Below are positions 14,847 through 34,998 of a stretch of DNA of 64,000 nt, piece by piece (within the stretch, counting starts at the first letter, position 1; each line of letters begins with the position of its first letter). The position numbers and the translations under genes are program-made. The notes beneath the pieces were generated by a model. It was not told where the DNA came from, made no database searches, and worked only from the letters and a program-made list of their open reading frames with translations. Where the stretch lies: the NCBI GenBank assembly GCA_964513995.1, contig CAZEOQ010000003.1:20009-84008 (forward strand), given 5' to 3'. This stretch comes from an uncultured Desulfobacterales bacterium. GTDB taxonomy: Bacteria; Desulfobacterota; DSM-4660; Desulfatiglandales; JALVZP01.

Positions 14847-14920
<74 letters not shown>

Positions 14921-14932
14921 TCAGCTATTAAA

Positions 14933-14961: not shown

Positions 14962-14966
14962 TATAT

Positions 14967-14995: not shown

Positions 14996-15019
14996 TAAAA
15001 AACAGGGAGGGATAAAGAT

Positions 15020-15373
15020 ATGCGAAAAGTTGGTGATCTTGTTCTTATCTATTATATGGGAAAGCCTTCTGTTTATGCAAGAATAGAATCCATAGAACCT
15101 GATGTAAAAGAAGGATGGTATCAAGTAAAACTTTTGCTTTTAAGTATCCCAGCACAAATAGTTACCTGGATACTGAGAGAAGAATACATTGATGGAAGTA
15201 TATTCACTATGGGTGGAGTTCCTATGAGACTTGGAGATGTTGAAATAGGACCTCCTGCAAAGCTTTTGGGAGAGATGAATCAGAAAAAAGAAGAGGATAA
15301 AAAGGAAGAAAAAGAGTCAAAGAAGAAAAAGGCAAAGGTTATAGAACTAAAACTTCCTGAAAGAAAAAGATAA
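15020..15373 (+). CDS. hypothetical protein (117 aa) with K/E-rich C-terminal tail
   Basis: GGGAGGG SD and a good promoter upstream. No recognisable family. Confidence 0.5.
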   Translation: MRKVGDLVLIYYMGKPSVYARIESIEPDVKEGWYQVKLLLLSIPAQIVTWILREEYIDGSIFTMGGVPMRLGDVEIGPPAKLLGEMNQKKEEDKKEEKESKKKKAKVIELKLPERKR

Positions 15374-15381
15374 CATAAGGT

Positions 15382-17781: not shown

Positions 17782-17872
17782 AATTCCCTCCTTAGATGTT
17801 ATAAATATTAAACACCAAAATACGAAAAAGCAATGATGAAGGTAAAATTTGTGAACTGCTTTATGTAACAGC

Positions 17873-17902
17873 TTGACATAAAGGGAATCTTTTTTGTAGG
17901 AA
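17873..17902 (+). promoter_or_regulatory. possible promoter of the CoA-transferase cluster
   Basis: TTGACA (17873-17878) followed after 18 nt by a weak -10 TAGGAA. It shares the ACAGCTTGAC context with the ihf promoter. An AAGGAGGGG SD precedes ATG 17935. Confidence 0.3.
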
Positions 17903-17934
17903 ATATGAAATGAAAACTTTAAAAGGAGGGGCAG

Positions 17935-19131
17935 ATGGCTGAAAAGGCATTAGAAGGAATAAAAGTCCTTGATCTTGCAAGAAATATTGCAGGATCATAT
18001 TGTGGAAAGCTTTTTGCAGACTTTGGTGCAGAGGTAATTAAGGTTGAGCCTCCTGAAGGAAATCCTTTAAGAAAGATGTGTCCTTTTAAGGGTGATGAAA
18101 AGGATCCTGAAAAAAGTGGAACATTCTTTTATCTGAATACAAATAAGAAGAGCATTACACTTGATATTACAAAAAAAGAAGGCGCTGATGTTCTTAAAAA
18201 ACTTGTAGAAAAAGCAGATGTCATTATAGAGGACTTTGAGCCTGGAAAGATGAAGGAGTTTGGGCTTTCGTATGAGGAACTGAAAAATGTAAATCCAAAA
18301 ATAATCATGACTTCTATAACCTGGTTTGGACAAGATGGACCATACAGGGACTATAAAGCAAATAACTTTGTCGCATATGGTCTTGGTGGTGCAATGTATG
18401 TCATGAGACCAACAAAGTGGCCAGACATAAGACCTGCCGTTCTTGGAGGATATCAGGCAGAATATACAGCAGGTCTTATTGCATACATAGCTACACTAAG
18501 TGCCATCATAAGTCCAAAAGTAGAAGGGACATGGATTGATCTTTCTGTTATGGAATCAGTAACGAGCACACTTACAGGAATTATGGCAGACTATTCATAT
18601 CTTGGACTTAGCAGAAGGACACTTCCTTGGGCAATACATGGATTTCCAACACAGGAAAACTATCCTTGCAAAGACGGTTATGTAAATCTTACACCAGGAA
18701 TTGGTGGAACACAGGTCATTGCTGATCTTATAGAAAAGCCAGAAGAAAGAGAAAATCCACTCCTTGTAAAAGCTGGAGCAAGGGTAAAAGAGCCAGAAAA
18801 GTTTGAACAGCTGATCCTTCCATGGCTAAAAGAGCATAAAAAATGGGAAATTACAGAAAAAGCACAAAAACTCAAGCTCGCATTTGCACCAATACTTAGT
18901 CCTGGAGAACTTCTTGAAGATCCACAGCTTAAAGAAAGGAAGTTCTTTGCAAAGGTAGATCATCCAAAGATGGGAGAGGTAACATATCCTGGAGCACCTG
19001 CAAAGCTCAGTGAAAGTCCATGGAAGGAAGGAAGGGCTCCTCTTCTTGGAGAACATACAAAGGAGGTCCTTTCTGAAGCAGGATATTCTGAGGATCAGAT
19101 AAATGATCTCAAAGAAAAAGGCATAATATAA
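17935..19131 (+). CDS. family III (CaiB/BaiF-type) CoA-transferase, subunit/paralogue A
   Basis: N-terminal family motif LEGIKVLDL...GKLFADFGAEVIKVEPP. By manual alignment, the position of the family nucleophile Asp carries Glu (GGYQAEYTAGL). Confidence 0.85.
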   Translation: MAEKALEGIKVLDLARNIAGSYCGKLFADFGAEVIKVEPPEGNPLRKMCPFKGDEKDPEKSGTFFYLNTNKKSITLDITKKEGADVLKKLVEKADVIIEDFEPGKMKEFGLSYEELKNVNPKIIMTSITWFGQDGPYRDYKANNFVAYGLGGAMYVMRPTKWPDIRPAVLGGYQAEYTAGLIAYIATLSAIISPKVEGTWIDLSVMESVTSTLTGIMADYSYLGLSRRTLPWAIHGFPTQENYPCKDGYVNLTPGIGGTQVIADLIEKPEERENPLLVKAGARVKEPEKFEQLILPWLKEHKKWEITEKAQKLKLAFAPILSPGELLEDPQLKERKFFAKVDHPKMGEVTYPGAPAKLSESPWKEGRAPLLGEHTKEVLSEAGYSEDQINDLKEKGII

Positions 19132-19144
19132 AGGAGGGAAAAAG

Positions 19145-20515
19145 ATGGCATATAAGCTTCTTGAAGGAATAAGAATACTTGATCTTACGACAGTATATGC
19201 AGGTCCTATGGGAACAAGAATACTTGCAGATCTTGGTGCAGAAGTAATAAAGATAGAGTCTCCATCAAGACCAGATCTTTTTACACGAATGACAGCATAT
19301 CCTGATAATGAACCACCTGAAAAGGAAAACTGGAATGCAGGAGGATACTTTCATCTCCTTAATGCAGGGAAAAAGGGGATAAGTCTTGATATATCAAAGG
19401 ATAAAGGAAAGGAGATATTCAAGAGACTTGTAAAGATAAGTGATATTGTAATGGAGAACTTTTCTCCAAGAGTTATGGATAATCTTGGTCTTGGATATCA
19501 GGAGCTCAGGAAAGTTAAGCCTGACATAATAATGGTATCAATGAGTGGACTTGGACATTATGGACCACTCAGAGACTACTACATGTATATGACAGGAATG
19601 GAAGGGATGTCCGGTCTTACATACATAACAGGACATCCTGACAAACCTCCACTTCTTTCAAACTATGCATATGGTGACTGGATGTTAGGAGTAACAGGTG
19701 CAGCTGCAGCTCTTACTGCACTCTATTACAGAAAAAAGACAGGAAAAGGACAGTATGTGGATGTTGCAGGAAGAGAAGCGATAATAATTCACATTGGTGA
19801 TGTGATAATGGACTATACACTTAATGGAAGAGTAAGGGAAAGGGCTGGAAACTTCCATCCAGAAATGGCACCACATGAATGTTATAGATGCAAGGGAGAA
19901 GACTCATGGATAAATATTGCAGTAGAAAATGATGAACAGTGGAAGGCACTTTGCAAGCTTATGGGAAAAGAAGAACTTAAAGATGATCCGAGATTTGCAA
20001 AAGCAGAAGACAGGGTAAAGAACAGAGAGGAGCTGAACAAAATTATAGAAGAGTGGACAAAGAATTATGATAACATAGAACTTATGGAAATGCTTCAGAA
20101 AGAAGGAATTCCTGCAGGTGCAGTCCTTTCCATGAAGCAGGTTCATCTGAATCCTCATCTAATCCAGAGAGGATACTTTGAGGTCATTGATCATGGAAAG
20201 GCTGTTGGAAAAAGACCAGTAGGAAAACAGATGCCAGCAAAGTTTTTGGGTGTAGAAAGCTTTGTTCCAAAAAGGGCTCCTCTTTTTGCTCAAGACAATG
20301 AATATGTATTTTGTGAGCTTCTTGGAATGAGCAAGGATGAGCTCAAGAAACTTGAAGAAGAAAAAGTCATAGGGACTGTTCCAAGATTTCCACCTCCTCG
20401 TCCAACAAGACTTGATCTTATAGAAAAACAGGTAGGAAAAGGTGCAGGTTATGTTGATCCAAATTATCTTGAAGAGCTGAGAAAGGTATTTGGAGAAGAC
20501 ATAGGAAAGAAATAA
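19145..20515 (+). CDS. family III (CaiB/BaiF-type) CoA-transferase, subunit/paralogue B
   Basis: LEGIRILDLTTVYAGPMGTRILADLGAEVIKIESP. The nucleophile Asp context YAYGDWMLGVTGAAAALTAL aligns with CaiB YTADYFSGLTATTAALAAL. Confidence 0.85.
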   Translation: MAYKLLEGIRILDLTTVYAGPMGTRILADLGAEVIKIESPSRPDLFTRMTAYPDNEPPEKENWNAGGYFHLLNAGKKGISLDISKDKGKEIFKRLVKISDIVMENFSPRVMDNLGLGYQELRKVKPDIIMVSMSGLGHYGPLRDYYMYMTGMEGMSGLTYITGHPDKPPLLSNYAYGDWMLGVTGAAAALTALYYRKKTGKGQYVDVAGREAIIIHIGDVIMDYTLNGRVRERAGNFHPEMAPHECYRCKGEDSWINIAVENDEQWKALCKLMGKEELKDDPRFAKAEDRVKNREELNKIIEEWTKNYDNIELMEMLQKEGIPAGAVLSMKQVHLNPHLIQRGYFEVIDHGKAVGKRPVGKQMPAKFLGVESFVPKRAPLFAQDNEYVFCELLGMSKDELKKLEEEKVIGTVPRFPPPRPTRLDLIEKQVGKGAGYVDPNYLEELRKVFGEDIGKK

Positions 20516-20531
20516 AAAGGAGGGAATCAGT

Positions 20532-21749
20532 ATGGAAGAGAAAATAGAAAAGGTAGAAAAGGGAAAGCTTGTTGAAGGTCGTCTTACTCCAGAGCTTATA
20601 AAGGAGATGGAAGGAAAGAAAGGACTTATGCTAAGAGTTGATGACTATATAAATAATGTTGATGTTACGAAAAGGGCAATAAGAAGTTTCTGTGATGGTG
20701 TAGGAGACTGGAATCCACTTTACAGAGATGAGGAATATGCAAAAAAGAGTCCATATAAAGGACTTGTAGCTCCACCATTTTTTGTATATTCCATCCTTCC
20801 TGCTGCACCACAGTTTGGATTTAGAGGACTTGGTGGATTCAATGCAAGGAATGAACTTCATTTTTATAAGCCTATCCGTCCAGGAATGCACATAGAGCCT
20901 ACATCACAGTTCAAGGACTTTGAGATAAAGGAAGGGAAAAGAGGAAAGATGGTATTTGAGTATTTTGAGCAAAGGTATGTAGATGAAAAAGGTGAGCTTG
21001 TATGTCTTTATAATCAGATGAATATAAGGGTTGAAAGAGCTGCAATGAGAAAGAGCAAGGAGGAAGAAGCAAAGAAAGAGAAAAAAGGTCCTCAGCTTCC
21101 ACATCCATGGACAGATGAAGAACTTGAACAGATAGAAAAAGAGATCCTTTCAGAAGAGATAAGAGGAGCAGAACCAAGATTCTGGGAAGATGTTCAGGTT
21201 GGAGAAGAGCTAAAGCCAGTAATAAAAGGACCAATTGGTCTTTCTGACATGATTGCATTCTTCCTTGGTGGTGCAACTCCTGTAAGACCATTTGGTCATG
21301 AGCTTGCATACAGACATAAACAAAGGCATCCTGCATGGTATTTCAGAGATCCTGAAACATATGCCTTGGAGCCAGTCTATGCTGTTCACTACAATAAATA
21401 TGCAGCACAATCACAGACAGGTATTGCATGGCCATATGATGTCGGAATACAGAGACACTGCTGGCAGGGACATCTTCTTACAAACTGGATGAGTGATCAC
21501 GGATGGCTGAAGATGGCAAGGGCAGAATACCGTGGTTTTGTATATCTTTCTGATGTGATAAGGGTTGGAGGAAAGGTCGTAAAGAAGTATATAGATGATG
21601 AAGGAGAGCCTGTTGTTGAGATAGAGACATATGCAATAAATCAGAGAGGAGAAAATGTAATGCCAGGACTTGCAATAGTTGCACTTCCGTCAAGAGAAAG
21701 GAACTACTGGCCAGTAGAAGAAAGAGTAAAAAAGGAAGGAATAAAATAA
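20532..21749 (+). CDS. double hotdog-fold (MaoC-N + MaoC-like) acyl-CoA dehydratase/hydratase family protein
   Basis: The N-terminal half carries FCDGVGDWNPLYRDEEYAKKSPYKGLVAPPFF, which is MaoC_dehydrat_N-like. The C-terminal half is a second hotdog domain. It is a paralogue of 26691-27881. Confidence 0.75.
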   Translation: MEEKIEKVEKGKLVEGRLTPELIKEMEGKKGLMLRVDDYINNVDVTKRAIRSFCDGVGDWNPLYRDEEYAKKSPYKGLVAPPFFVYSILPAAPQFGFRGLGGFNARNELHFYKPIRPGMHIEPTSQFKDFEIKEGKRGKMVFEYFEQRYVDEKGELVCLYNQMNIRVERAAMRKSKEEEAKKEKKGPQLPHPWTDEELEQIEKEILSEEIRGAEPRFWEDVQVGEELKPVIKGPIGLSDMIAFFLGGATPVRPFGHELAYRHKQRHPAWYFRDPETYALEPVYAVHYNKYAAQSQTGIAWPYDVGIQRHCWQGHLLTNWMSDHGWLKMARAEYRGFVYLSDVIRVGGKVVKKYIDDEGEPVVEIETYAINQRGENVMPGLAIVALPSRERNYWPVEERVKKEGIK

Positions 21750-21761
21750 AGGAGGAGGAAG

Positions 21762-23345
21762 ATGCCACTCAAAACCTTCTTGGATGAATTTAAGAGCTAC
21801 GAAGAAGCAAGAGAAAAGTTCAAGTGGTCTGACAGATGGAAGGTATTTGATGGGACAAAAGAAAACTTTAACATTGCACATGAATGTGTTGACAGACATC
21901 CAAAAGAGGATGTTGCTTTGAGGATAAAGTATGAGGACGGAAGGGAAGAGGTTTATAAGTTTAAGGAATTTTCAGAAGCAACATCACAGTTTGCAAACTT
22001 CCTTGCTGGAAGAGGAATAGAAAAAGGAGACAGAGTTGCACTCCTTCTTCATCCATGCTTTGAGTTTTATGTGGGAATGTTTGGGACATTTAAGAGAGGT
22101 GCTATCGTAATCCCATGTTCTCCACTTTTTGGACCAGAAGCAGTTGGATATCGTCTTGAAAAAGGTGGTGCAAAGGCAATACTTACAACAAAGGACAGGA
22201 CAAATCTTATTCCTGATGATGTAAGAAAGAAGCTGAATCTTCAGATAATATATGCAGACGATCTTCTTGATCAGATAAGCAAGGAATCAACAGAATTTAC
22301 TCCTAATACCAGTGCAAATGATCTTGCAATGTATCAGTTCTCAAGTGGGACAACAGGTGCACCAAAGATAGTAAATTACAGACATGGTGCAATTACTGTT
22401 GCAGCACCATTTGTAAGGTTTGCCGTAGGAATTACAGCTGATGACAACTACTTCTGTCCATCATCTCCTGCATGGGGACATGGAATCTGGTATGGAACAA
22501 TAGCACCACTTATATTTGGAGTTGCTGTTGGTGCATATTCAGGAAGGTTTAATCCTGATGTATGTCTTGAAGCACTTCAGAACTTTGAAATAACAAACAT
22601 CTCTGCAATTGCATCACACTACAGACTTATGGTCACATCTCCAAATGTTGATAAATACAAGCTTAAGCTAAGGAAGCTTACGTATACTGGTGAGGCTATG
22701 CCAAAGGACATAATAGAGCTTATACAGAAAAAATGGGGAATTACACCTTATGTCCTTTACGGAACAACAGAGGTAGGTCCTCTTACATGTGATTTTGCAG
22801 GATTTGAAACCTGGAAGCCAAAGCCAGGAAGTCTTGGAAAGCCAGCAATAGGAGCAGAAGTAGAAGTCCTTGATGAAGAAGGAAACATATGTCCTCCAGG
22901 AAAAGTAGGACAGATGGCAATAAAAAGAGGTGATAAATGGATAAAGGTAGGAGATCTTGTGTATAAGGATGAAGATGGATTCTTCTGGTATGTTGGAAGA
23001 GCAGATGATGTCATTATATCTGCAGGATATACAATAGGACCAATAGAGATTGAAGAAGCTCTTAAGAAACATCCAGCAGTGGAAGAGTGTGCAGTTGTTG
23101 GAAGTCCTGATAAAGAAAGAGGAAACATTGTAAAGGCATTTATTAAAGTAAGGGAAGGATACAGTCCTACTCCACAGCTTGCAGAAGAGATAAAGGAGTT
23201 TGTAAAGGATAAGCTCAGCAAGCATGAATATCCAAGAGAAGTTGAATTTATTGACGAGATTCCAAAGACACCTGATGGAAAGATAAGAAGGAAGGTGCTT
23301 AGGGAAAGAGAGATAGAGAGAAAGAAGAAGATGGGAGTGATATAG
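21762..23345 (+). CDS. AMP-forming acyl-CoA synthetase/ligase
   Basis: Adenylate-forming motifs YQFSSGTTGAPK, YGTTE, GDLVYKDEDGFFWYVGRADD and PKTPDGKIRR. Confidence 0.85.
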   Translation: MPLKTFLDEFKSYEEAREKFKWSDRWKVFDGTKENFNIAHECVDRHPKEDVALRIKYEDGREEVYKFKEFSEATSQFANFLAGRGIEKGDRVALLLHPCFEFYVGMFGTFKRGAIVIPCSPLFGPEAVGYRLEKGGAKAILTTKDRTNLIPDDVRKKLNLQIIYADDLLDQISKESTEFTPNTSANDLAMYQFSSGTTGAPKIVNYRHGAITVAAPFVRFAVGITADDNYFCPSSPAWGHGIWYGTIAPLIFGVAVGAYSGRFNPDVCLEALQNFEITNISAIASHYRLMVTSPNVDKYKLKLRKLTYTGEAMPKDIIELIQKKWGITPYVLYGTTEVGPLTCDFAGFETWKPKPGSLGKPAIGAEVEVLDEEGNICPPGKVGQMAIKRGDKWIKVGDLVYKDEDGFFWYVGRADDVIISAGYTIGPIEIEEALKKHPAVEECAVVGSPDKERGNIVKAFIKVREGYSPTPQLAEEIKEFVKDKLSKHEYPREVEFIDEIPKTPDGKIRRKVLREREIERKKKMGVI

Positions 23346-23352: not shown

Positions 23353-24342
23353 ATGAAAAAAGGAAGACAAAAGGGCGGATTATTCCGCCCTTTTGTTTTA
23401 ATTATTTTTTCTGTCCTTCTTATTGCCCCTTCTTTCTGCAAAGCAGAAAAAGAATTTCTTCTTCCAGGAAAGCTTTATCCTTCCTTATGTATCTGTTTTC
23501 CAAACAATAAGGAAGGATGGATAGCAGGGCATTTTGGAATGATCTGGCATACAGATGATGGTGGAAAAAGCTGGAAGATTCAGGAAAGTGGAACGAGGAA
23601 AAATATAGTGGACATGTATTTTGTTGACACGAAGAATGGATGGGCGGTAGGATATGGAGGACTTATCCTTCATACATCTGATGGAAAAAGATGGGAAAAA
23701 CAGAAAAGTCCTTTGCCTTATTTCTGGAAGTCTGTCTTCTTTAAAGACAAGCTTCATGGATGGATTGTTGGAGAGATGGGAACAGTCCTTTATACAGAAG
23801 ATGGTGGAAAGAACTGGAAGGTCCTTATTACTGGAGACGACCTTGTATTCCATTCAATTGCCTTTTCTCCTGAAGGATATGGATGGGCAGCAGGTGAATT
23901 TGGTGTCATATATGCATATGATCTGAAGAAGTGGTATCTTGAAGACAATGGAATAGCTGCAGAAGAAAACACCATATGGTCAATAGCATGTATTGGAAAA
24001 GAAAGGATCGTTGCATCAGGAATAGCCTCACTCCTTCTTATAAAGGAAGGTTATACTGGAAGATGGAAGAGGATAAGAGTTCTTGAGAAATATCATGGAC
24101 AGAATAGCCTTTTCAGGATACTCAAATTCAAGGATAAGATAATCACATTTGGTATGAAGTCTATCTATTATAGCAAAGACCCTTATGGACCATGGAAAAA
24201 AGCTCGTCTTCCTTTAAAGCTTCCATATGGTGAATGGCTTTATGATTGCTGGAATAATGGGAAAAGGGTTTGGATCCTTGGAATAAAAGGAACAATCCTT
24301 TACAGTGATGATGGTGTGGTATGGAAGACCATAGGGGAATAA
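23353..24342 (+). CDS. secreted Ycf48/BNR-repeat-like beta-propeller protein
   Basis: Signal-peptide-like N-terminus and repeated Asp-box motifs TDDGGKSWK, TSDGKRWEK, TEDGGKNWK and SDDGVVWK. Confidence 0.75.
   Translation: MKKGRQKGGLFRPFVLIIFSVLLIAPSFCKAEKEFLLPGKLYPSLCICFPNNKEGWIAGHFGMIWHTDDGGKSWKIQESGTRKNIVDMYFVDTKNGWAVGYGGLILHTSDGKRWEKQKSPLPYFWKSVFFKDKLHGWIVGEMGTVLYTEDGGKNWKVLITGDDLVFHSIAFSPEGYGWAAGEFGVIYAYDLKKWYLEDNGIAAEENTIWSIACIGKERIVASGIASLLLIKEGYTGRWKRIRVLEKYHGQNSLFRILKFKDKIITFGMKSIYYSKDPYGPWKKARLPLKLPYGEWLYDCWNNGKRVWILGIKGTILYSDDGVVWKTIGE
23367..23410 (+). terminator. intrinsic-terminator-like hairpin inside the 5' coding region of the Ycf48-like gene
   Basis: 13-bp perfect stem ACAAAAGGGCGGA (23367-23379) / TCCGCCCTTTTGT (23384-23396) with a 4-nt loop, followed by TTTTAATTATTTTTT. 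Confidence 0.55.
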
Positions 24343-26687
24343 CAGGATTTATAGCAGAATATGCCTTCAGATTCAGAATTCCACTTCTCATCCTCACATT
24401 CCTTATCACAGTATATATGGGAATTGGTCTTAGAAGACTTCAGACAAAAGCAAGACTTGAGGACATGCTTCCAGAAAGTCATCCTTATATAAAACTTCAC
24501 AAAAAATATCAGGCAATATTTGGTGGAGCAAATACAGTCCTTTGTGAACTTAAGGTAAAAGAAGGAGACATATTTAATCCAAAATTCTTAAAGATACTCA
24601 AAGAAGTAACATACAAATTTCGCTATTATGACGATGTATATCCTCTTCTCGTAGATTCTATTACTCTTCAGAAGGCAAAATACATAAGTGTAAGAGGAAG
24701 GGGTGAGGTATACATTGGATCACTTGTATGGCCAAGAATTCCAAAGAAAAAGGAAGAGCTTGAAGAACTTAAAGAACATACACTTGGAAGTCCTCTTTAT
24801 AGAGGTGTCCTTGTTTCAGCTGATGGAAAGGCTGCTCTTATTGTTGCTCAATTTAAGCCAACAATTGATTATAAGAAGCTTTACAGATTTGTCCAAGACT
24901 TAAGAGAAAAGTATAATAACGAATATACGAGCATACACCTCATAGGAAGACCAATACTTCTTGCCACAATATATGGTCACTGGAACAGGATATTCTTTAT
25001 ATTTGCAATAACATTTGCAATCATAGGAATCCTTCTTTTCCTTTTTTTAAGGTGTCTTATAGGACTTATTGTCCCGATTGCTGTTGCATTTTTAAGCAGC
25101 ATCTGGGGGATTGGTCTTTGTGGATACCTGAAACTCAACTTTGATCCACTTATGATCGTCCTTCCATTCCTTGTTTCTGTAAGATGCATAAGCAGTGCTG
25201 TTCAGAAATGTGAAAGATATGTGGAAGAGGAGCTAAGGACAAGGAGAAAGGATATTGCTGCAAAGAATACTATAAGGAGTATGCTTCCTCCATGTCTTGG
25301 AGCAGTCCTTACAGATGGAGCAGGATTTGCTGCTATGATCCTTTCAGACATCCCTTTTTTAAAAAACATAAGCATCATACTTACACTCTGGATACTGAAT
25401 CTGATATTTTTGAGTGGGATAATGGCACCAATATTTTCATATTATCTTCCTGCACCAAGTTCTTATAAGAGCAGATTCTTCAGACCTTCAAAAGAAGATA
25501 TCTGGGCAAGATTTAACACAAAGATTGCAAGATTTTCCATAACACCTTTTGGAAAAAAGATTGTTATAGGCTTTGTCTTTACAGTTGCCTTTTTCTTTGG
25601 AATCTTTGCAGCAAGGATACCAATTGGAGAAATAGCTCCTGGGACAAGTGTTCTTAAGCCTGATTCTGTATATAATAGGGATTTTCAGGAAATAACACTC
25701 AGGTTTGACAAGATTGGTCCTGATACACTAATTCTATTTTTTGAAGGAAGGCCAGGGGCAGTAGAAGATCCAAGATTCCTTCACTACATAGAAGCATTTG
25801 AGTATTATATGAAGGAAAGGATGCCTGATATATGTGGAGGATGGAAGTCTCTTACGACAATCATAAGAAGACTTAACTGTATGTTTCATGAAGGAGATCC
25901 ATCATGGTTTCTTATCCCTGATAAGAAAAAGGCAACAGAGGATCTGATCCTTTTATATAGACAAAAGCAGCCACCTGGTGGATTTGACTGTTTTGCTGAC
26001 AGGCTTTTTAGATTTGGAAACACAGTCCTTTTTTTCAAGGATCATACTGAAAAGACAATAAAAAGAATCATGAAACACATGAAAGAGTTCTTTGAAAGAT
26101 ATCCACCAAAAATAGAAGGACTTGGAGAATTTAAACCAGCAGGAGGAGTAATAGGAGTTCATGCAGCAATAAATGAGACGATTGAAAAAGAGCATCTTCG
26201 CATAGACTCTACTGTCCTTTCAGCAATATTCCTTATATGTGCTCTTACATTCAGATCACTTCTTATTGCAAGCTTCCTTATAACTCCTCTTATTGTTGCA
26301 AACATCGTAGGATTTGGACTTATGAGCCTTCTTGGTCTTAGTCTTACGATAGAAACGATTCCTATTGCTGCTGTTGGTGTTGGAATTGGAGTAGACTTTA
26401 GCATTTATCTTTATAGCAGATACAAGGAGGAGTATGCAATAAGGACAGATATGGAAAGGAATCTTATTGAAGGTGCAAAGTCTGTAGGAAAAGCAATCCT
26501 TTTTATTGCACTTGTCATGATCATTCCTCTTTCTGTCTGGGGATTTCTTGCAGAGATAAGATTTCAGGCACAGATGGGAATGTTCTATTCACTTATCTTC
26601 TTTATAAATCTTATATTCTCTCTTACATTTCAGCCAGCAGTTGTTTCTCTTTTTGGAAAAAGGGTTGAGAAATCTCTTAAGAGGTAA
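24321..26687 (+). CDS. RND-superfamily transporter, MMPL/HpnN-like (COG1033-type)
   Basis: 788 aa with two multi-TM bundles separated by large soluble loops. The N-terminus is typical of predicted RND exporters. It overlaps the Ycf48-like gene by 22 nt. Confidence 0.8.
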   Translation: MEDHRGITGFIAEYAFRFRIPLLILTFLITVYMGIGLRRLQTKARLEDMLPESHPYIKLHKKYQAIFGGANTVLCELKVKEGDIFNPKFLKILKEVTYKFRYYDDVYPLLVDSITLQKAKYISVRGRGEVYIGSLVWPRIPKKKEELEELKEHTLGSPLYRGVLVSADGKAALIVAQFKPTIDYKKLYRFVQDLREKYNNEYTSIHLIGRPILLATIYGHWNRIFFIFAITFAIIGILLFLFLRCLIGLIVPIAVAFLSSIWGIGLCGYLKLNFDPLMIVLPFLVSVRCISSAVQKCERYVEEELRTRRKDIAAKNTIRSMLPPCLGAVLTDGAGFAAMILSDIPFLKNISIILTLWILNLIFLSGIMAPIFSYYLPAPSSYKSRFFRPSKEDIWARFNTKIARFSITPFGKKIVIGFVFTVAFFFGIFAARIPIGEIAPGTSVLKPDSVYNRDFQEITLRFDKIGPDTLILFFEGRPGAVEDPRFLHYIEAFEYYMKERMPDICGGWKSLTTIIRRLNCMFHEGDPSWFLIPDKKKATEDLILLYRQKQPPGGFDCFADRLFRFGNTVLFFKDHTEKTIKRIMKHMKEFFERYPPKIEGLGEFKPAGGVIGVHAAINETIEKEHLRIDSTVLSAIFLICALTFRSLLIASFLITPLIVANIVGFGLMSLLGLSLTIETIPIAAVGVGIGVDFSIYLYSRYKEEYAIRTDMERNLIEGAKSVGKAILFIALVMIIPLSVWGFLAEIRFQAQMGMFYSLIFFINLIFSLTFQPAVVSLFGKRVEKSLKR

Positions 26688-26690
26688 AGT

Positions 26691-27881
26691 ATGATAGAGT
26701 CAAAGGTAAAGATGGCAGAAGCAGAGATTACAGAAGAGCTTATAGAGGAGATGAAAAAAAGAAGAGGGAAGAAGCTTTATGTGGAAGATGTCCTTTTTCA
26801 CGACAGGGCAACAAAAAGGGCAATAGAAAGGTTTGCAGATGCAATAGGAGATCCTAATCCTCTCTGGAGAGACAGGGAATATGCAAGGAATACTATATAT
26901 GGAGACATAGTTGCACCACCTTCATGGATACTTTCTGTTCTTTCTGGTGTCCAGTTTGGATGGAAAGGTCTTGCAGGATTTCACATCTCAACTGAGATAA
27001 AGTTCTTTAGACCAATAATGCTTGATGATGTCCTGAGCTGTGAATCGGTATATGTAGGATTTGAAGGTCCAAAAAAGAGCAGATTTGCAGGAAAGGTTGT
27101 CATAGATACATTCAGAGAGAGGTATTTTAATCAGAAAGGAGAACTCATAGCAGTGTCTATAAGAAAGATCCTGAGAGCAGAAAGAAAAAGTGCAAGAGTT
27201 CGTTCTTATTATGAAGGAATAAAGCTTCCACATCCATGGAAAGAAGATGAGCTGAAGAAGATAGAAGAAGAGGTTATGAATGTGAAGATAAGGGGATCTG
27301 AGATAAGATACTGGGAAGATGTTAAAGTAGGAGAAGAGCTTCCAGATCTTGTAAAAGGACCAATTGGAATCATGGACATAATTTCTGCAATAAGTGTTGG
27401 ACTTGCTCCTGCAAGGATATGTGGTCAGGCTGTTGCACTTGAGGAATACAGAAAAAGACCTGCATGGGCATTCCGTGATCCAGAAACAGGTGCAATGGAA
27501 CCTCTTCTTGCGGTTCACTATAACAAAGAAGCAGCAAAGGCAATGGGTCTTCCATATCCATATGATCTTGGACCACAAAGACAGTGCTGGTATATACAGC
27601 ACATAACAAACTGGATGGGAGATGATGGATGGCTAAAAAGCTGCTCTGCAGAATACAGAAGGTTTGTATTTCTTTCTGATGTTATCCGTTTTAAAGGAAA
27701 AGTCACAAGGAAGTATGTGGATGAAGAAGGTGAGCCTGTTGTAGAGATAGAAACGAATACATATAATCAGAGAGGGGAAAATGTCCTTATTGGAAAAGCA
27801 ACAGTTGTCCTTCCATCAAAAAAGATGAATACACATCCAGTTAAAAAAAGACTTGGGAGGGAAGAAGATGGTAAGGGCTAA
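26691..27881 (+). CDS. double hotdog-fold (MaoC-N + MaoC-like) protein, paralogue 2
   Basis: FADAIGDPNPLWRDREYARNTIYGDIVAPPSW, plus long blocks identical to 20532-21749 (e.g. GEPVVEIET, LPHPW, RDPET). It starts 4 nt after the RND stop. Confidence 0.75.
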   Translation: MIESKVKMAEAEITEELIEEMKKRRGKKLYVEDVLFHDRATKRAIERFADAIGDPNPLWRDREYARNTIYGDIVAPPSWILSVLSGVQFGWKGLAGFHISTEIKFFRPIMLDDVLSCESVYVGFEGPKKSRFAGKVVIDTFRERYFNQKGELIAVSIRKILRAERKSARVRSYYEGIKLPHPWKEDELKKIEEEVMNVKIRGSEIRYWEDVKVGEELPDLVKGPIGIMDIISAISVGLAPARICGQAVALEEYRKRPAWAFRDPETGAMEPLLAVHYNKEAAKAMGLPYPYDLGPQRQCWYIQHITNWMGDDGWLKSCSAEYRRFVFLSDVIRFKGKVTRKYVDEEGEPVVEIETNTYNQRGENVLIGKATVVLPSKKMNTHPVKKRLGREEDGKG

Positions 27882-28209
27882 GCTATGGCTCAGATGTGCT
27901 GCTGTAGGAGATCCTGTAACTCCTGTTCTTGTAAGACCTGCTGTTTTGGGATGGGAAGGGAAGTTCAGGGACATATCACTTACCATAGAAAGACCTTTCA
28001 AGGCAGATGAGCTTTTGAGAAGGATGAAGGGATGGGTTACTGTGGATGTGGAAAAATTTATAGATATCGTAAAAAAATATGGATTTTTGAAACTACTTGA
28101 TGAAAGATATGTTGTAATAGAGACAGAGACTGAAGAAGAGTTTGAAAAGATGAAGAAAGAGCTTCAGAAAAATTTTGAAGATCAGTTTGATCTGGAGAGG
28201 ATGGTATGA
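27868..28209 (+). CDS. hypothetical protein (113 aa)
   Basis: ATG 27868 lies 6 nt after GGGAGGG (the ORF-track TTG is at 27853). It overlaps the upstream stop and makes an ATGA overlap with ugd. No recognised family. Confidence 0.5.
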   Translation: MVRAKLWLRCAAVGDPVTPVLVRPAVLGWEGKFRDISLTIERPFKADELLRRMKGWVTVDVEKFIDIVKKYGFLKLLDERYVVIETETEEEFEKMKKELQKNFEDQFDLERMV

Positions 28210-29582
28210 GCTTTAAAAAAAGGATTCTTTGTATAGGTGCAGGATATGTTGGTGGAATTACAATGGCTGTTATTGCAAAAAAGTGTCCTGAATATAAAGT
28301 TACACTTGTTGATGTTGATCATGAAAAGATAGACAGGTGGAACTCAGATGATCTTCCTATATATGAACCAGGACTTTATGAGATAGTAAAAGAAAGAAGA
28401 GGGAAGAATCTCTTTTTTGTAAAGGATATGGAAAGGGCAATAAAAGAGGCAGACATAATATTTGTAAGTGTAAATACTCCTACAAAGACATTTGGAGAAG
28501 GAGCAGGCTATGCAGCAGATCTTCAATACTGGGAAAAGACAGCAAGAAAGATAAAGGAGTATGCAGATTCAGACAAGATAATAGTAGAAAAAAGCACACT
28601 TCCTGTAAGGACAGCAGAGGCAATGGAAAGGATACTTAAGGCAGGAAACAGAAGTATTCATTTTGAAGTAATATCAAATCCTGAATTCTTAGCAGAAGGA
28701 ACAGCAATAAGGGATATGGAAGATCCTGACAGGGTCCTTATAGGATACAGGGATACAGAAGAAGGAAGAAAGGCAAAGGATGAGATAGTAGAGATTTATG
28801 CACACTGGGTTCCAAAGGAAAGGATAATAACTTCAAATATATGGAGTAGTGAGCTTGCAAAGCTTGTTTCAAATGCATTTCTTGCACAAAGGGTTTCTTC
28901 CATAAATTCTATTACTCCACTTTGTGAAAAGACAGAGGCAGACATCCAGGAGATAGCAAAGGCAGTTGGGATGGACAGCAGAATCGGAAGTAAATTCCTG
29001 AATGCAAGTGTGGGATTTGGTGGATCTTGTTTTAAAAAGGACATACTGAATCTTGTATACCTTTGCAGATACTATGGTCTTGATGAGGTTGCAGACTATT
29101 GGGAGGCGGTTGTAAGGATAAATGAGTATCAGAAGGAAAGGTTTGTAAAGATGATGATCTCTGCAATGTTTCATACACTTGTAGAAAAAAGGATATGCCT
29201 TTTTGGATTTGCATTTAAGGCAAATACAGATGATACAAGGGAAAGTCCTGCAATATATGTTGCAAAAAGGCTTCTTGAAGAAAAGGCATTTCTTAGGATA
29301 ACAGATCCAAAGGCACTTGAAAATGCAAAAAGGGATCTAAAAGGGATAGATCAGAATGTGGAATACATAGAAGATCCATACATTGCAGCAGAAGACTGTG
29401 ATGCAATAGCAGTTCTTACAGAATGGGATCTTTACAGAAGACTTGATTATGAAAGGATATACAGAAGTATGAGAAAGCCTGCATTTATATTTGATGGAAG
29501 AAACATACTTGATCACAGAAGACTTTTTGAAATAGGATTTAATGTATATCCAATAGGAAAAGTCCCTCTTACTCACTTTTAG
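28206..29582 (+). CDS. ugd: UDP-glucose 6-dehydrogenase
   Basis: NAD-binding GAGYVGG and the catalytic Cys motif GFGGSCFKKD. Confidence 0.9.
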   Translation: MSFKKRILCIGAGYVGGITMAVIAKKCPEYKVTLVDVDHEKIDRWNSDDLPIYEPGLYEIVKERRGKNLFFVKDMERAIKEADIIFVSVNTPTKTFGEGAGYAADLQYWEKTARKIKEYADSDKIIVEKSTLPVRTAEAMERILKAGNRSIHFEVISNPEFLAEGTAIRDMEDPDRVLIGYRDTEEGRKAKDEIVEIYAHWVPKERIITSNIWSSELAKLVSNAFLAQRVSSINSITPLCEKTEADIQEIAKAVGMDSRIGSKFLNASVGFGGSCFKKDILNLVYLCRYYGLDEVADYWEAVVRINEYQKERFVKMMISAMFHTLVEKRICLFGFAFKANTDDTRESPAIYVAKRLLEEKAFLRITDPKALENAKRDLKGIDQNVEYIEDPYIAAEDCDAIAVLTEWDLYRRLDYERIYRSMRKPAFIFDGRNILDHRRLFEIGFNVYPIGKVPLTHF

Positions 29583-29584: not shown

Positions 29585-31282
29585 ATGGAAGAAAAGGTAA
29601 TTCAGTTTAAAAGAGAAGGGCAGACTGTTGCTGAAAGAAGAAGGGAGCTTTTTTTAGAAAGACTGTTCAGTCTTCCTCCAGAAAAAGCACTTGACCTTAT
29701 ACTTTCTCAGCAAAATGCAAAAGAGCTTGTTCAGAACCTTCCTTCAGTTGACCTTTACTGGATCATAAAAAAGATAGGAGAAGATGATTCTATTCCCATT
29801 CTTGAACTTGCTTCAGAAGAGCAATGGCAATACATACTTGATATAGAAGTATGGGTAAGGGACAGGATAAACATAAGGAAGGTATCTGAATGGCTCAGGA
29901 GATTTATGAAAGCAGATGCTGAAAGACTTGCAAGATGGCTTATAACTGAAGAAATGGAAATGTTTACTTACTATTATCTCTACAGGATGCTTGACATAAT
30001 AATTGCAACAGATGACAACATATACGACATTCCTGAAGACTACTTTACACTTGACGGAACATTTTATCTGAAGCTAAGAGATCCTGATCAGAGAGATCTT
30101 ATTGAGACAATCCTAAAGCTTATAGCAAGTGAAAGCTTCCTAAGGTATCAAGCACTTCTTATGACATCAAGAGCAATTCTTCCTGCATCAACAGAGGAAG
30201 AGCTATATAGGCTTAGAAGTGTAAGGATTGCAGAATATGGTTTCCTTCCATTTGAAGAAGCAGTTGGAATATATGCCCCACTTGATCCAGAGGATCTTGT
30301 ATTAGAAAAGAAGGACAGAAGAAAGGAGATAGTTTATGTTGATGATGAGGTAAAGGACATAATCCCATCTTTTCCAATGTATAGTCTTCAGCCTGTAGGC
30401 ATATTTCAGCTTGCCTTAAGGAACATTAAAGACAATGTCCTTCTTGACAGAATAAAGCTTGAATTTGCTGGTCTTTGCAATCAACTTCTTTCTGCTGACG
30501 GACTTTCTATTGGAGGATATGAGGATCTTATAAAAGTCTGTAAAAAAGCAGCAGGTTATCTGAACATAGGTTTTGAAAAGGTATGTGGTAATGATGTAAA
30601 TATGGCTATAGAGCTTATAAAGAAGAATTCACTTCATTCTATATTCAGAGTAGGATTTGGTATTGCACTTAGGCTGAGATGGGAAGTAGAAAGATGGATA
30701 AAAGAAAGCTGGTTTAGGAGTCAGGAGATAGACTTCAGTTTCTGGGGATCAGACGGAGAAATCCTTATAGGTCTTCTTAACAAAAAACCTCTTTATTATG
30801 TAGGAATAGAAGATGGAGAAGAATACAGACCTTTCCAGAGCCTGAAGGAAATAGAGGAATGCAGAAGTATCTTTTATAAGATAAAAGTCCTTGACAGGCT
30901 TTTTTCTGATCTTACATCGTTCTATCCAATTGAAAAAGGTCTTCTTAAAGATCCTACCATAACTTATGTCCCTTTTCTTTTCACATTCTGGGCAAGAAAG
31001 ATATTGGAACTTGATCCTGGATTTTTACCAATAGATATGGATCAGGTAAGAAGGTTCTTTGAAAAACTCAGAGAAAAAGAAAGCCAACCTCCATATAGGA
31101 TGGAAGGATTTAGGGAAAGATTTATAGAAGATATAAGCTGTTACTTTTCAGGAGAAAAAGAGGAAAAAAGGATTCTAAGGGATATACTTTCTTCTCTGTG
31201 GGATGAATTTAGAGAAGAATATGAAAATGTAGCTATAAAGGACTTAGATGAAAGATATATCAGGTTCATCCTTATCAGATAA
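29585..31282 (+). CDS. hypothetical protein (565 aa), helical-repeat N-terminus
   Basis: Long ORF starting 2 nt after the ugd stop. The N-terminal region is loosely MgtE-N-like helical. No catalytic motif recognised. Confidence 0.55.
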   Translation: MEEKVIQFKREGQTVAERRRELFLERLFSLPPEKALDLILSQQNAKELVQNLPSVDLYWIIKKIGEDDSIPILELASEEQWQYILDIEVWVRDRINIRKVSEWLRRFMKADAERLARWLITEEMEMFTYYYLYRMLDIIIATDDNIYDIPEDYFTLDGTFYLKLRDPDQRDLIETILKLIASESFLRYQALLMTSRAILPASTEEELYRLRSVRIAEYGFLPFEEAVGIYAPLDPEDLVLEKKDRRKEIVYVDDEVKDIIPSFPMYSLQPVGIFQLALRNIKDNVLLDRIKLEFAGLCNQLLSADGLSIGGYEDLIKVCKKAAGYLNIGFEKVCGNDVNMAIELIKKNSLHSIFRVGFGIALRLRWEVERWIKESWFRSQEIDFSFWGSDGEILIGLLNKKPLYYVGIEDGEEYRPFQSLKEIEECRSIFYKIKVLDRLFSDLTSFYPIEKGLLKDPTITYVPFLFTFWARKILELDPGFLPIDMDQVRRFFEKLREKESQPPYRMEGFRERFIEDISCYFSGEKEEKRILRDILSSLWDEFREEYENVAIKDLDERYIRFILIR

Positions 31283-32354: not shown

Positions 32355-34998
32355 AGAAGAAGCAGAAGAAAGGTATAAGGTCTTAAAAAAGATTGCAGGA
32401 GAAAGTATAGATAAAGAAAAGCTGAAAAAGATTATTTTATTGAGTGATTTTGTTTTTAATACAATCCTGAATTATCCTTCTAGTCTGGAAGTTATAGATG
32501 AGAAGATAAAAAAAAGGTTTGGAAAAGAGGATTACATAAGGAGGATAGGGGATTGTATAGAAGAGGAGATAGGTGAATTTAAAAAAAGGCTGAGAAGACA
32601 GAGAAATAAAGAGCTTTTAAGGATTGCATGGAAGGACATCGTGGAAGGATGTGATGTATTTGAGGTGATGAAAGAGCTTTCAGCATTTGCAGATGCCTGT
32701 ATTCTAAGGACTATGGAATATACCTATAGGATGTATTCACACAGATTTGGTTCTCCTGCAGAAAAAGCTCAGACTTTAACGGTTATTGCTTTGGGAAAAT
32801 TGGGAGGAGAAGAACTCAATTTTTCATCTGACATTGACATTATGTTTGCCTATCCTGAAGAAGGAGTAACATATAGCAAAATTACAAACAGTGAATTTTT
32901 TTCATATATGGCTCAATCAATTATCAACATATTAAGTGAACATACAGAAGATGGATTTGTCTTTAGAGTAGATACGAGACTCAGACCATTTGGAGAAAGT
33001 GGTCCAATAGTTATGAACTTTGATGAAATGGAAGATTATTACTATACATATGGAAGAGAATGGGAAAGATATGCACTTATAAAAGCAAGGGTTATAGGAG
33101 GGAATGAGGAGATTATACACAGGATCAGGAAATTTGTTTACAGGAAGTATCTTGATTATGGAGTATTTGAGGCATTAAGAGAGATGAAGGAGAAGATAGA
33201 ATCAGAAACAAAGGATATGAGTATAGATGAGGATATAAAACTTGGGCCTGGAGGAATAAGGGAGATAGAATTTTTTGTTCAAGTCTTTCAGTTGCTTAGA
33301 GGAGGAATAGATCCTGAACTTCAAACACCAAGTCTGCTGAAGGCTATTTCTGTTCTTGGAGAAAAGGGATATCTTGACAAAAAGATCTGTTCTGGATTGA
33401 TCTCTGCATATAGATTTTTCAGAAGACTTGAAAACAGGATTCAGCAATATAAGGATCTACAGACACACAGGCTTCCAAAAGAAAGGAAAGAAAGGATAAA
33501 ATTAGCTTTTTCAATGGGATTTGAAGACTGGGATAGCTTTTTTAAAACTCTGCTTTATTGGTCCTCTTTTGTAAGAAAAAACTTTTCTCAGCTTTTAGGA
33601 AAAAAAGAAAAGACAGAAGACATCTTTGTGTCAATATGGAATACAGATGAAAGAGAAAAGAGAAAAAGGCTTCTTTCTTCTATTGGAGCATCAAAAAAAG
33701 TTGAGACAATAATTGATGAACTGAAACAGACAAGATACCTTGGACAGAATGCAAAAAGGATCCTTGATAAGCTTATGCCAGTCGTCTTAAAAAAGATCTT
33801 TAAAGAAGAGGAAAATGTATCTCTGGCAATATCCAGGATTATAAAAAGCATACAGACAAGGACAAATTATCTTTCTCTTCTTCTTGAAAATCCATCTGTT
33901 ATTGATCATCTTATAAGACTTGCAAAAGAAAGCTCATGGATAATCTCATTTGTCTCAAAAAATCCTGCACTCTTAGATGAACTTATAGATCCAAGGACAC
34001 TTTATAATCCACCAAGAAGAGAAGAGCTGAAAAGGGACATAAATAACAGGCTGAAGATGATTTCTGATTTAGAGGATCAAATAATACAGCTATGTCTTTT
34101 CAGACAGACAAACACACTTAGAGTTGCTGCAGCAGACATAGAAGGCGCTATTTCTACAGTTGAGGTAAGCAGTCTCCTTACGCATATAGCAGAAGTTGTC
34201 TTGGAAAAGGCTTTGGAGATTTCTATGAATAAATTTGGAAAAAAAGATGGATTTTGTATTATAGGATATGGTAAGCTTGGAGGAAGGGAACTCGGTTATA
34301 ACTCTGATCTTGACATAGTATTTATCCATACAGAAGATCCATCCTCTTATATAAAAGTCTCACAACACATCCTCAAGCTTCTTACGACATATACAGTCAT
34401 GGGAAAGGTATATGAAATAGACACAAGACTAAGACCAGATGGAAGTTCAGGAGTCCTTTCAGTAAACATCTCTTCATTTGAAAAGTATCAGTTAGAAAGG
34501 GCATGGACATGGGAACATCAAGCACTCCTTAGAGCAAGGGGGATATGTGGGGACAAGAAGGTCATGAAGGCATTTGAGGATATAAGATATAAGGTGCTTT
34601 CAAAGAAAAGAGAAAAAGGGAAGCTTTTTGAAGAAGTATGGGACATGAAAGAAAGGATAAGAAAAAATCTGTTAAAACCAGTAAAAGGTCTTTTTCACAT
34701 AAAGTATGAAAGAGGTGGAATCATAGACATTGAATTCCTAATCCAGTATCTTGTTCTTCTTAATGCACATCTTTTTCCTGAGATCCTGAAAAGGAGATCT
34801 CACATTCATTTCATAGAAGAGCTTGTAAGGGTATCTGTTATGGATAAGGAAGATGGAATCTTTCTGAAGAATGCTTATATTGAGCTGAGGTCTATGCTAA
34901 ACAGGCTCTCACTTCAGGAAAAGCCATTTAGAGTTGAAAGAGAAAGGGTTTGTGAGATAGCTGAAAAGGTGGAAAGGCTATGGGAAAAATATTCCTGA
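32335..34998 (+). CDS. glnE: glutamine synthetase adenylyltransferase/adenylyl-removing enzyme
   Basis: Two nucleotidyltransferase modules: GKLGGEELNFSSDIDIMF and GKLGGRELGYNSDLDIVF. Confidence 0.85.
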   Translation: MLPRELKEEAEERYKVLKKIAGESIDKEKLKKIILLSDFVFNTILNYPSSLEVIDEKIKKRFGKEDYIRRIGDCIEEEIGEFKKRLRRQRNKELLRIAWKDIVEGCDVFEVMKELSAFADACILRTMEYTYRMYSHRFGSPAEKAQTLTVIALGKLGGEELNFSSDIDIMFAYPEEGVTYSKITNSEFFSYMAQSIINILSEHTEDGFVFRVDTRLRPFGESGPIVMNFDEMEDYYYTYGREWERYALIKARVIGGNEEIIHRIRKFVYRKYLDYGVFEALREMKEKIESETKDMSIDEDIKLGPGGIREIEFFVQVFQLLRGGIDPELQTPSLLKAISVLGEKGYLDKKICSGLISAYRFFRRLENRIQQYKDLQTHRLPKERKERIKLAFSMGFEDWDSFFKTLLYWSSFVRKNFSQLLGKKEKTEDIFVSIWNTDEREKRKRLLSSIGASKKVETIIDELKQTRYLGQNAKRILDKLMPVVLKKIFKEEENVSLAISRIIKSIQTRTNYLSLLLENPSVIDHLIRLAKESSWIISFVSKNPALLDELIDPRTLYNPPRREELKRDINNRLKMISDLEDQIIQLCLFRQTNTLRVAAADIEGAISTVEVSSLLTHIAEVVLEKALEISMNKFGKKDGFCIIGYGKLGGRELGYNSDLDIVFIHTEDPSSYIKVSQHILKLLTTYTVMGKVYEIDTRLRPDGSSGVLSVNISSFEKYQLERAWTWEHQALLRARGICGDKKVMKAFEDIRYKVLSKKREKGKLFEEVWDMKERIRKNLLKPVKGLFHIKYERGGIIDIEFLIQYLVLLNAHLFPEILKRRSHIHFIEELVRVSVMDKEDGIFLKNAYIELRSMLNRLSLQEKPFRVERERVCEIAEKVERLWEKYS

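Follow-up and report, generated by a model that had tools for sequence, protein, structure and literature searches.

How benzene is activated and processed when neither oxygen nor carboxylation is involved has long been an unsolved question. In the benzene fermenter Candidatus (Ca.) Anaerobenzenivorax ORM2a, anaerobic benzene activation has been attributed tentatively to a highly expressed gene set, the Magic cluster (Toth et al. 2026, PMC13101534). The three most abundant ORM2a proteins are those of a GlcDEF-like FAD/Fe-S/FAD complex, and Magic and Nanopod proteins are both abundant during benzene degradation (PMC13101534). In the marine sulfate reducer BzS1, growth on benzene goes with high abundance of the module BzS1_26180/190/200/210 (Musat et al. 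2026, PMC13416013). These two papers tied the Magic enzymes and the Nanopod transporter by co-expression only, and they called for homologous systems elsewhere (PMC13101534, PMC13416013). On the transporter side, AmeABCD of Castellaniella defragrans is a monoterpene-tolerance system (PMC6394551). Shewanella and Pseudomonas homologues of the DUF1302/DUF1329/BNR/RND architecture, in which BNR denotes a Ycf48-like propeller, show cofitness phenotypes (10.1101/072470), Pseudomonas putida homologues are required on Tween 20 and fatty esters (10.1101/2020.07.04.188060), and an AlphaFold-based shuttle model has been put forward for the architecture (PMC10866462). Here we describe a gene block on a 64,000-nucleotide (nt) stretch of contig CAZEOQ010000003.1 from an uncultured Desulfobacterales bacterium; this whole stretch is called the window. 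The block encodes two CoA-transferase subunits (CoAT1 and CoAT2), a double-hotdog protein (HD1), an acyl-CoA ligase (LIG), a BNR propeller, an RND transporter, and a second double hotdog (HD2). It is a new arrangement that physically joins two gene sets previously linked by co-expression alone, and it is a variant of a recently described, biochemically uncharacterised system.

We propose, with moderate confidence, that the region forms a catabolic gene block in two tiers, belonging to a low-GC Desulfobacterales lineage (36% GC in the window), in which aryl or hydrophobic CoA-ester catabolism would be combined with envelope handling of the substrate. Tier 1 (17935-23345) would comprise a BbsEF-like CoA-transferase, HD1, and a medium-chain-type AMP-forming ligase, ending at a terminator. 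Tier 2 (23353 to ~29582) would comprise the propeller, an HAE3 RND protein, HD2, a small protein termed S113, and ugd. The assignment of tier 1 begins with the ORM2a genome, a complete sequence retrieved by a genome scan with the hotdog family. In full-length tblastn alignments, CoAT1 is 62% identical to Magic #28, CoAT2 69% to #27, HD1 73% to #23, and LIG 69% to #22, whereas generic members of the families reach just 47-60%. The relative order CoAT1-CoAT2-HD1-LIG is the same as that of #28/#27/#23/#22. In the hotdog tree, HD1 groups with ORM2a #23 and with the flavoprotein-linked homologues P0123, P0125, and P0126. By identity and tree position, the CoA genes of the window and those of the Magic anaerobic-benzene cluster form one clade.

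Copies of the block CoAT1-CoAT2-HD1-LIG-BNR-RND-HD2 occur in about seven lineages and in at least three different genomic neighbourhoods. It is complete at loci L006-L009, L011, L012, L015 (= L097), and L016, and contig-truncated pieces occur at L094-L096. The RND proteins of the block lineages are 69-80% identical. Upstream neighbours vary (PlsB, ERCC4, RACo), as do downstream neighbours, and the conserved linkage of transporter pair and CoA genes supports what the original prediction had drawn from a single locus. Its view that a cytoplasmic thioester enzyme is translationally chained to a transporter also finds support, as the spacing from RND to HD2 in every lineage lies between a 19-nt gap and a 4-nt overlap. 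A BNR or RND gene was found within 10 kb at 4 of 7 informative Magic-clade genome loci versus 0 of 71 generic hotdog loci (Fisher p = 2.5e-5, for loci that are not phylogenetically independent). L014/L098 and L017 (AUK045) carry CoAT1-CoAT2-HD1-LIG-HD2 without the transporter pair, and the 320 bp between LIG and HD2 in L014 and L017 contain no remnants of BNR or RND. A neighbour-joining tree of concatenated sequences unites the pair-bearing L016 with the pair-less L014 and L017 (100/100 bootstrap). This grouping leaves two histories for the pair: presence in the ancestor of the clade followed by a single loss, or two gains at one and the same site.

A mobile two-gene transporter module might instead have landed past the ligase terminator, between transcription units, and been inherited passively, with no functional link to the enzymes. 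The conserved terminator between LIG and BNR, the absence of the pair from the same site in L014 and L017, and the interleaving in the tree of RNDs from cassettes and four-gene clusters, which suggests mobility, would all fit such an event. However, both deep branches of the clade retain the pair, with 100/100 bootstrap support for the grouping of L016, L014, and L017, and in every lineage it is closely packed against HD2. Magic-type flavoprotein clusters are linked to two other RND lineages, and the same pattern is found in EbN1 and in the Castellaniella catabolic island. We therefore regard passive inheritance as very improbable.

The two other RND lineages were seen at loci with a different gene content. 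At L090-L092 and L109-L111, a flavoprotein cluster of the form FAD-CCG-FAD ... HCDH-ECH-TetR, arranged as in BzS1, is followed directly by BNR and MMPL genes. In L090-L092, the genes continue into a DUF1329 gene and then an open reading frame (ORF) of at least 689 residues without a Pfam match. The pair at L090 (locus at 7195-21779) and L109-L111 belongs to another sub-lineage, ~30% and 38% identical to the window pair, with Ycf48-like proteins of 375-387 residues and MMPL proteins of ~900 residues. In BzS1, the genes past TetR (13090-13130) encode "hypothetical" proteins seen in membrane fractions only (PMC13416013). At L108 (GCA_054029575.1), the order is MMPL-FAD-CCG-FAD-#30-#29-CoAT-CoAT-HD-LIG, so that an MMPL gene precedes a complete Magic cluster. 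L004 is in the same assembly; it is a DUF1302-DUF1329-BNR-RND cassette, and its RND and that of the window are 62% identical. HAE3 RND/Ycf48 pairs of three sub-lineages are thus physically joined to Magic-type modules, which amounts to independent linkage, and that the RND-Magic linkage lasts through repeated shuffling speaks for a functional connection. As modules, the following recur: CoAT-CoAT-HD-LIG (with a terminator of its own), HD2 (the possible #30/#29 counterpart), the flavoprotein trio, and HCDH-ECH-TetR.

Three further features of these loci were recorded. Downstream of the complete Magic-type cluster of L108 (14447-18469, JBPNTN010000112.1) lie two HGD-D and two BcrAD_BadFG genes; they resemble 2-hydroxyacyl-CoA dehydratase or class-I benzoyl-CoA reductase and bear on the alpha-elimination step hypothesised for BzS1. 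L106 (JGI 3300004761, Ga0068270_10093) reads CoAT1-CoAT2-HD-HCDH-ECH-LIG, then an NDP-forming acyl-CoA synthetase, ECH, radical SAM, and, further on, FAD, a reshuffling of the same modules. In L012 (11214-12809), the ligase gene seems truncated or frameshifted, with a 363-residue ORF followed by a 500-nt gap, and could be a pseudogene or an assembly error.

The propeller and the RND protein were each examined against described families. The propeller has a signal-peptide-like N-terminus with a hydrophobic core at residues 10-28, which agrees with the predicted secretion. It matches PF14870 with 73 bits (cut-off 27), and its best Protein Data Bank (PDB) matches are Ycf48 structures (E = 1e-21). 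Four Asp-box motifs had been counted in the original prediction. Two of these fit the regular expression [ST]xDxGxxW (TDDGGKSW at 67 and TEDGGKNW at 148), and the other two, TSDGKRW at ~106 and SDDGVVW at ~316, are Asp-box-like by eye but each one residue short. An identity as the Ycf48/HCF136 photosystem II assembly factor was rejected, as NF010237 scores 77 bits versus a cut-off of 326 and only the fold family is common. The loci nearest to the block in the hotdog genome scan come from records labelled "uncultured Desulfobacterales", which bears on the photosynthetic host that a Ycf48 assignment implies. The RND protein has ~12 hydrophobic segments and two large loops (residues 41-223 and 432-625). 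It matches PF03176 with 102.5 bits (cut-off 20.5), and its best NCBIfam match is TIGR00921 HAE3 at 146.7 bits, under the subfamily cut-off of 351.9. In transmembrane segment 10, at least 90% of 64 homologues share residues G690, D692, and Y696 (GxGxD...Y), and the conserved Asp/Tyr pair is the putative proton relay.

The nearest relatives of the window RND outside the block are the RNDs of L002, L003/L004, and L010, which are 62-65% identical to it, form one clade with it in a neighbour-joining tree, and sit in DUF1302-DUF1329-BNR-RND cassettes. The RND of L005, also in such a cassette, is 45% identical. The window propeller is 47-52% identical to propellers of these cassettes, and a propeller/RND overlap of 19-22 nt is kept in the main clade. 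No tblastn match to the DUF1302 outer-membrane barrel or to the DUF1329 LolA-like protein was found in the 64-kb window. Family and gene architecture assign the window pair to the AmeCD/Nanopod type of HAE3 pairs. Ycf48/RND pairs had been described in the original prediction as lacking any assigned function; the monoterpene tolerance conferred by AmeABCD, the Pseudomonas and Shewanella fitness phenotypes, and the abundant expression of the ORM2a Nanopod on benzene mean that this is not wholly so.

Two analogies with lipid exporters did not stand up to the profile searches. For the hopanoid transporter HpnN, TIGR03480 scores 47.4 bits versus a cut-off of 751.85 and NF052374 32.9 versus 1100, and no hopanoid genes lie within the window. 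For the mycobacterial FadD-MmpL pairing, the MmpL3 model scores 24.8 bits against the window RND (cut-off 1400), the ligase gives medium-chain ACSM/MacS-type or acetate-type matches rather than FadD/FAAL ones, and Pfam and NCBIfam profile scans found no polyketide synthase (PKS) or acyltransferase gene in the unit. These scores also bear on the idea that the pair exports a cell-wall or outer-membrane lipid component and that, together with ugd and plsB, the unit builds or remodels and exports a (glyco)lipid. Such a role in envelope biogenesis could be read from the pleiotropic fitness phenotypes of the four-gene homologues, for which an export role was proposed by Price et al. (10.1101/072470), from lipid export by the HAE3 protein HpnN and by the MmpL proteins, from the co-inheritance of ugd with the block in five lineages, and from plsB lying divergently upstream in the window. 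However, plsB is adjacent in the window only, with other upstream genes in L006 and L009; ugd is missing from L006, L014, L016, and L017; and the unit holds no acyltransferase, glycosyltransferase, or PKS gene. With a ligase that is not of the FAAL/FadD32 type and with HpnN and MmpL3 models far under their cut-offs, envelope biogenesis appears improbable. The original prediction had allowed for a unit that either builds and exports or imports and degrades a hydrophobic acid or lipid; the second alternative fits better, and we judge the first unlikely to a similar degree as envelope biogenesis.

HD2 follows the transporter gene directly. The two hotdog proteins are identical at 187 of 395 positions (47%, E = 2e-128), in line with the earlier by-eye estimate of about half. 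They fall in different subfamilies of the tree, HD2 forming a separate clade in a generic subfamily, and because of this HD1 and HD2 are best read as ancient paralogues. The duplication within the unit that had been suggested is not what the tree shows, and HD2 as a recent tandem duplicate of HD1 is ruled out by it. In L014 and L017, where the transporter pair is lacking, HD2 comes directly after LIG. The N-terminal half of the hotdog family is matched by ORM2a #30 (hhalign probability 96%) and the C-terminal half, weakly, by #29 (50%), and HD2 may be the fused counterpart of this split #30/#29 pair.

S113 has 113 residues when started at an ATG with a GGGAGGG Shine-Dalgarno sequence and 118 if the TTG at 27853 is used. 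It is 77-82% identical in L009, L011, L012, and L015, with ugd always next, and this conservation in four other lineages marks it as a genuine gene. Its family comprises 79 representative clusters among 1.84 billion proteins, all of them small proteins. S113 has no Pfam or NCBIfam match, and comparison with ORM2a #29, with the 143- and 118-residue proteins of L006, and with hotdog domains found no similarity. S113 and ugd are inherited together with the block in the window, L009, L011, L012, and L015.

The genes from CoAT1 to LIG are separated by 12-16 nt, each gap with a GGAGG Shine-Dalgarno sequence, and this series is closed by a hairpin. A hairpin stands right after the ligase stop in every lineage (L006, L009, L011, L012, L015, L016, L014, L017, and L022), and, as in the window, a terminator follows the ligase gene of ORM2a (stem CCGGGGC/GCCCCGG). 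The stem sequences differ by lineage, for example GGGCGG/CCGCCC, GGGACGG/CCGTCCC, and GGAGACGG/CCGTCTCC. In the window's clade, the hairpin lies inside the first 16 propeller codons (codons 4-16 in the window, within those of the signal peptide), and in L016 it is intergenic. In the L015 sequence, the hairpin is read in another frame, which suggests conservation of the structure rather than of the encoded peptide. With the stems of L014, L016, and L017 shifted in a MAFFT alignment, RNAalifold found just part of a common stem; the conservation is that of the per-sequence hairpins. The original prediction had envisaged one 10-kb transcription unit, and with a conserved intrinsic terminator past the ligase gene a single simple transcript is probably not what is made. 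Tier 2 has no room for a promoter of its own, and its expression would therefore depend on read-through or on a promoter inside the ligase gene. We infer two expression tiers, the second reached by read-through of the terminator. Translation-dependent anti-termination at the hairpin is possible as a speculation.

The coordinates of the block are collected in Table 1. The four genes predicted to follow the ligase gene on the same strand were verified in coordinates and families. The RND gene overlaps the propeller gene by 22 nt, HD2 starts at the 4th nucleotide past the RND stop (a 3-nt spacer), and the 113-residue ORF overlaps HD2 by 14 nt and ugd by the ATGA, all as had been read from the sequence.

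Table 1. Features of the block, with positions in the window.
Feature	Position	Strand	Evidence
CoAT1, type-III CoA-transferase subunit, BbsE-like	17935..19131	+	PF02515, E = 1e-83
CoAT2, type-III CoA-transferase subunit, BbsF-like	19145..20515	+	PF02515, E = 1e-109
HD1, double-hotdog MaoC-type hydratase/dehydratase, Magic #23 clade	20532..21749	+	PF13452 + PF01575
LIG, AMP-forming acyl-CoA ligase, medium-chain (ACSM/MacS) type	21762..23345	+	PF00501 + PF13193
Intrinsic-terminator-like hairpin	23364..23409	+	16-bp GC-rich stem + T-run, 19 nt past LIG stop
Periplasmic Ycf48-like propeller (COG4447, AmeC-type), 329 residues	23353..24342	+	PF14870 PSII_BNR, E = 2.6e-20
HAE3-family RND/MMPL inner-membrane transporter (AmeD/Nanopod type), 788 residues	24321..26687	+	PF03176, TIGR00921
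HD2, second double hotdog, 396 residues	26691..27881	+	PF13452 + PF01575
S113, conserved small soluble protein, 113 residues	27868..28209	+	no Pfam/NCBIfam family
ugd, UDP-glucose 6-dehydrogenase	28206..29582	+	PF03721, PF00984, PF03720

The tier 1 enzymes were compared with proteins of known structure. The best PDB match of CoAT1 is 9fn0_A, a benzylsuccinate CoA-transferase subunit (E = 7e-49), and 9fn0_B is the second-best match of CoAT2 (E = 6e-61). CoAT1 and CoAT2 are 32% identical to one another, and their matches to different 9fn0 chains suggest a BbsEF-like heteromer. A Pfam scan found no other bbs genes (BbsG, H, CD, AB) and no lyase gene beside them. The best PDB matches of LIG are 9g79, 5u2a, 3etc, 8biq, and ACSM2A. 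The AlphaFold2 model of HD1 (predicted local distance difference test score of 83) gave double-hotdog dehydratases as its top Foldseek matches, the closest being MSMEG_6754, the mesaconyl-CoA hydratase MeaC, and itaconyl-CoA hydratase. HD1 as a mesaconyl- or itaconyl-CoA hydratase was rejected, since only the fold is alike: sequence identity to MeaC and PaIch is just 12-14%, and there is no NCBIfam match.

The observed homology, synteny, conserved linkage, and terminator allow us to propose a substrate class, a direction of transport, and a transcript structure. The ligase would make the first acyl-CoA and so prime a cycle in which the transferase recycles CoA from the product onto the incoming acid. 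HD1 and HD2 would then hydrate an aryl-substituted, possibly dicarboxylic, enoyl-CoA en route to benzoyl-CoA. The proton-driven RND protein and the propeller would shift a hydrophobic hydrocarbon or intermediate between inner membrane and periplasm, and outer-membrane DUF1302/DUF1329 partners, if any, would be encoded elsewhere. A more specific version, which we offer tentatively and consider doubtful, is that the lineage can degrade benzene or a related arene anaerobically, an ability so far overlooked. The Nanopod-type pair would then be hard-wired to the Magic module as a dedicated pathway part, and the terminator would set the enzyme-to-transporter ratio via translation-dependent read-through.

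Several observations weigh against the proposed catabolic role. The 64-kb window holds neither a flavoprotein gene nor one for DUF1302, DUF1329, or the benzoyl-CoA pathway. Members of the generic CoAT/HD/LIG family occur widely across Chloroflexota, Acidobacteriota, and Firmicutes, so that the chemistry is not specific to benzene. Both hotdog proteins have another residue in place of the canonical hydratase-2 histidine, Tyr in HD1 (GDWNPLY) and Trp in HD2 (GDPNPLW). The window pair was likened to ORM2a #36/#37 at the level of family and gene architecture; the trees are neighbour-joining trees built on tblastn segments; and the functions of the Magic and Nanopod proteins were themselves inferred only from proteomics. 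To our knowledge, every characterised RND pump exports, and an uptake role is without precedent. For this reason, extrusion, which would limit the membrane load, is the more likely direction of transport.

The flavoprotein is central to a further alternative. Neither the window nor any cassette locus gave a tblastn match to the FAD / Fe-S (CCG) / FAD flavoprotein (GlcDEF-like, #24-26). In searches for homologues of ORM2a #24 and of clusters P0363 and P0380, every match lay outside the window's population, which comprises GCA_053987455.1 (contig JBMXHN010000012.1), GCA_053940125.1 (a near-identical copy), SRR35107132, SRR32939038, and SRR32938009. The #24-type matches came from GCA_053939655.1, GCA_053995175.1, GCA_053985365.1, JGI 3300022470, and SRR7051321. 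The block could encode a stand-alone pathway whose substrate is a pre-formed organic acid, for example phenylpropanoate, cinnamate, an acid that is branched or of medium chain length, or an itaconate- or mesaconate-type C5-dicarboxylate, in a host that is no benzene degrader. The cassette would then be an ancestral acid-handling module, later joined to the flavoprotein by benzene degraders, and the RND pair would give tolerance to the acid or its hydrophobic form. Consistent with this idea, the flavoprotein is absent from all 21-kb cassette loci as well as from the window, neighbourhoods of the generic CoAT-CoAT-HD and HD-LIG kinds occur widely outside the benzene lineages, the hotdog fold has its nearest counterparts in mesaconyl- and itaconyl-CoA hydratases, LIG is similar to ligases of short- and medium-chain acids, and the window neighbourhood is housekeeping with no catabolic island. 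However, HD1, LIG, and the CoATs sit in a tight clade otherwise with Magic-cluster genes only (62-75% identity versus at most 60% for generic members), and the BNR-RND linkage is confined to the Magic clade. In BzS1 and in AUK045 (L017), too, the four-gene module and the flavoprotein locus are separate, and therefore the absence of the flavoprotein from the locus says little. We consider a stand-alone acid pathway rather unlikely.

The block matters under either outcome. If the lineage degrades benzene or a related arene, the block would provide genetic evidence beyond co-expression for the transporter as a dedicated part of the benzene pathway. If it does not, the block would define the ancestral acid-handling module behind the benzene clusters. 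It also offers small gene sets, free of the flavoprotein, that could be expressed in a heterologous host and screened for substrates.

Elsewhere in the window, a bacterial large-type signal recognition particle RNA lies at 7814-8070 (151 bits). A full-length DUF6178 protein is encoded at 29585-31282 (E = 6.5e-150) on the same strand, between ugd and dprA/glnE, with flanking gaps of at most 2 nt; no version of the locus other than that of the window has it. Two DUF3857 proteins are encoded in tandem, the first with an additional transglutaminase domain; they adjoin a convergent ABC-2 / ABC_transp_aux / DUF4340 cluster, and these genes (34980-43786) are envelope-related.

The closest described counterparts of tier 1 are the modules of BzS1 and ORM2a. 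BzS1_26180-210 has the same gene order as tier 1, with matching protein sizes and masses. In ORM2a, the FAD-FeS-FAD genes stand between CoAT2 and HD, whereas the window and its sister loci lack them, and the window has a fused HD2 where ORM2a has the split #30/#29. Unlike the Magic and BzS1 modules, the window block has the Ycf48/RND pair embedded in it, and in contrast to that system it is not on a transposase-flanked island; the rest of the neighbourhood is housekeeping. Type-III transferases of two subunits are shared with BbsEF (PDB 9fn0), and the itaconate and mesaconate modules (Ict/Ich, Mct/Mch) likewise combine a type-III transferase with a double-hotdog hydratase, the fold of HD1 being nearest to MeaC and PaIch.

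For the transporter pair, a second pattern of this kind is found on plasmid 2 of Aromatoleum aromaticum EbN1 (NC_006824.1, 205.7-223.1 kb), an anaerobic degrader of aromatic compounds. There, YCF48-MMPL-DUF1302-DUF1329 genes lie inside a CoA-ester cluster with an AMP-binding ligase. As in the window, the pair is thus within a CoA cluster; however, the EbN1 RND is only 31% identical to the window RND, and the EbN1 cluster encodes crotonase/ACAD/thiolase beta-oxidation enzymes rather than type-III transferases and double hotdogs. AmeABCD, the ORM2a Nanopod, and P. putida PP_0765/0766 and PP_2018/2019 all share with the window an HAE3 (COG1033) RND protein and a co-oriented COG4447 Ycf48-like periplasmic protein. 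The AmeABCD cassette includes DUF1302 and DUF1329, in contrast to the 64 kb of the window, and in P. putida and P. stutzeri the system is split over two loci. In these systems, and putatively in the window, the pair lies in or beside catabolic genes for hydrophobic substrates; unlike in those systems, the window pair is packed directly against the gene for a cytoplasmic hotdog enzyme.

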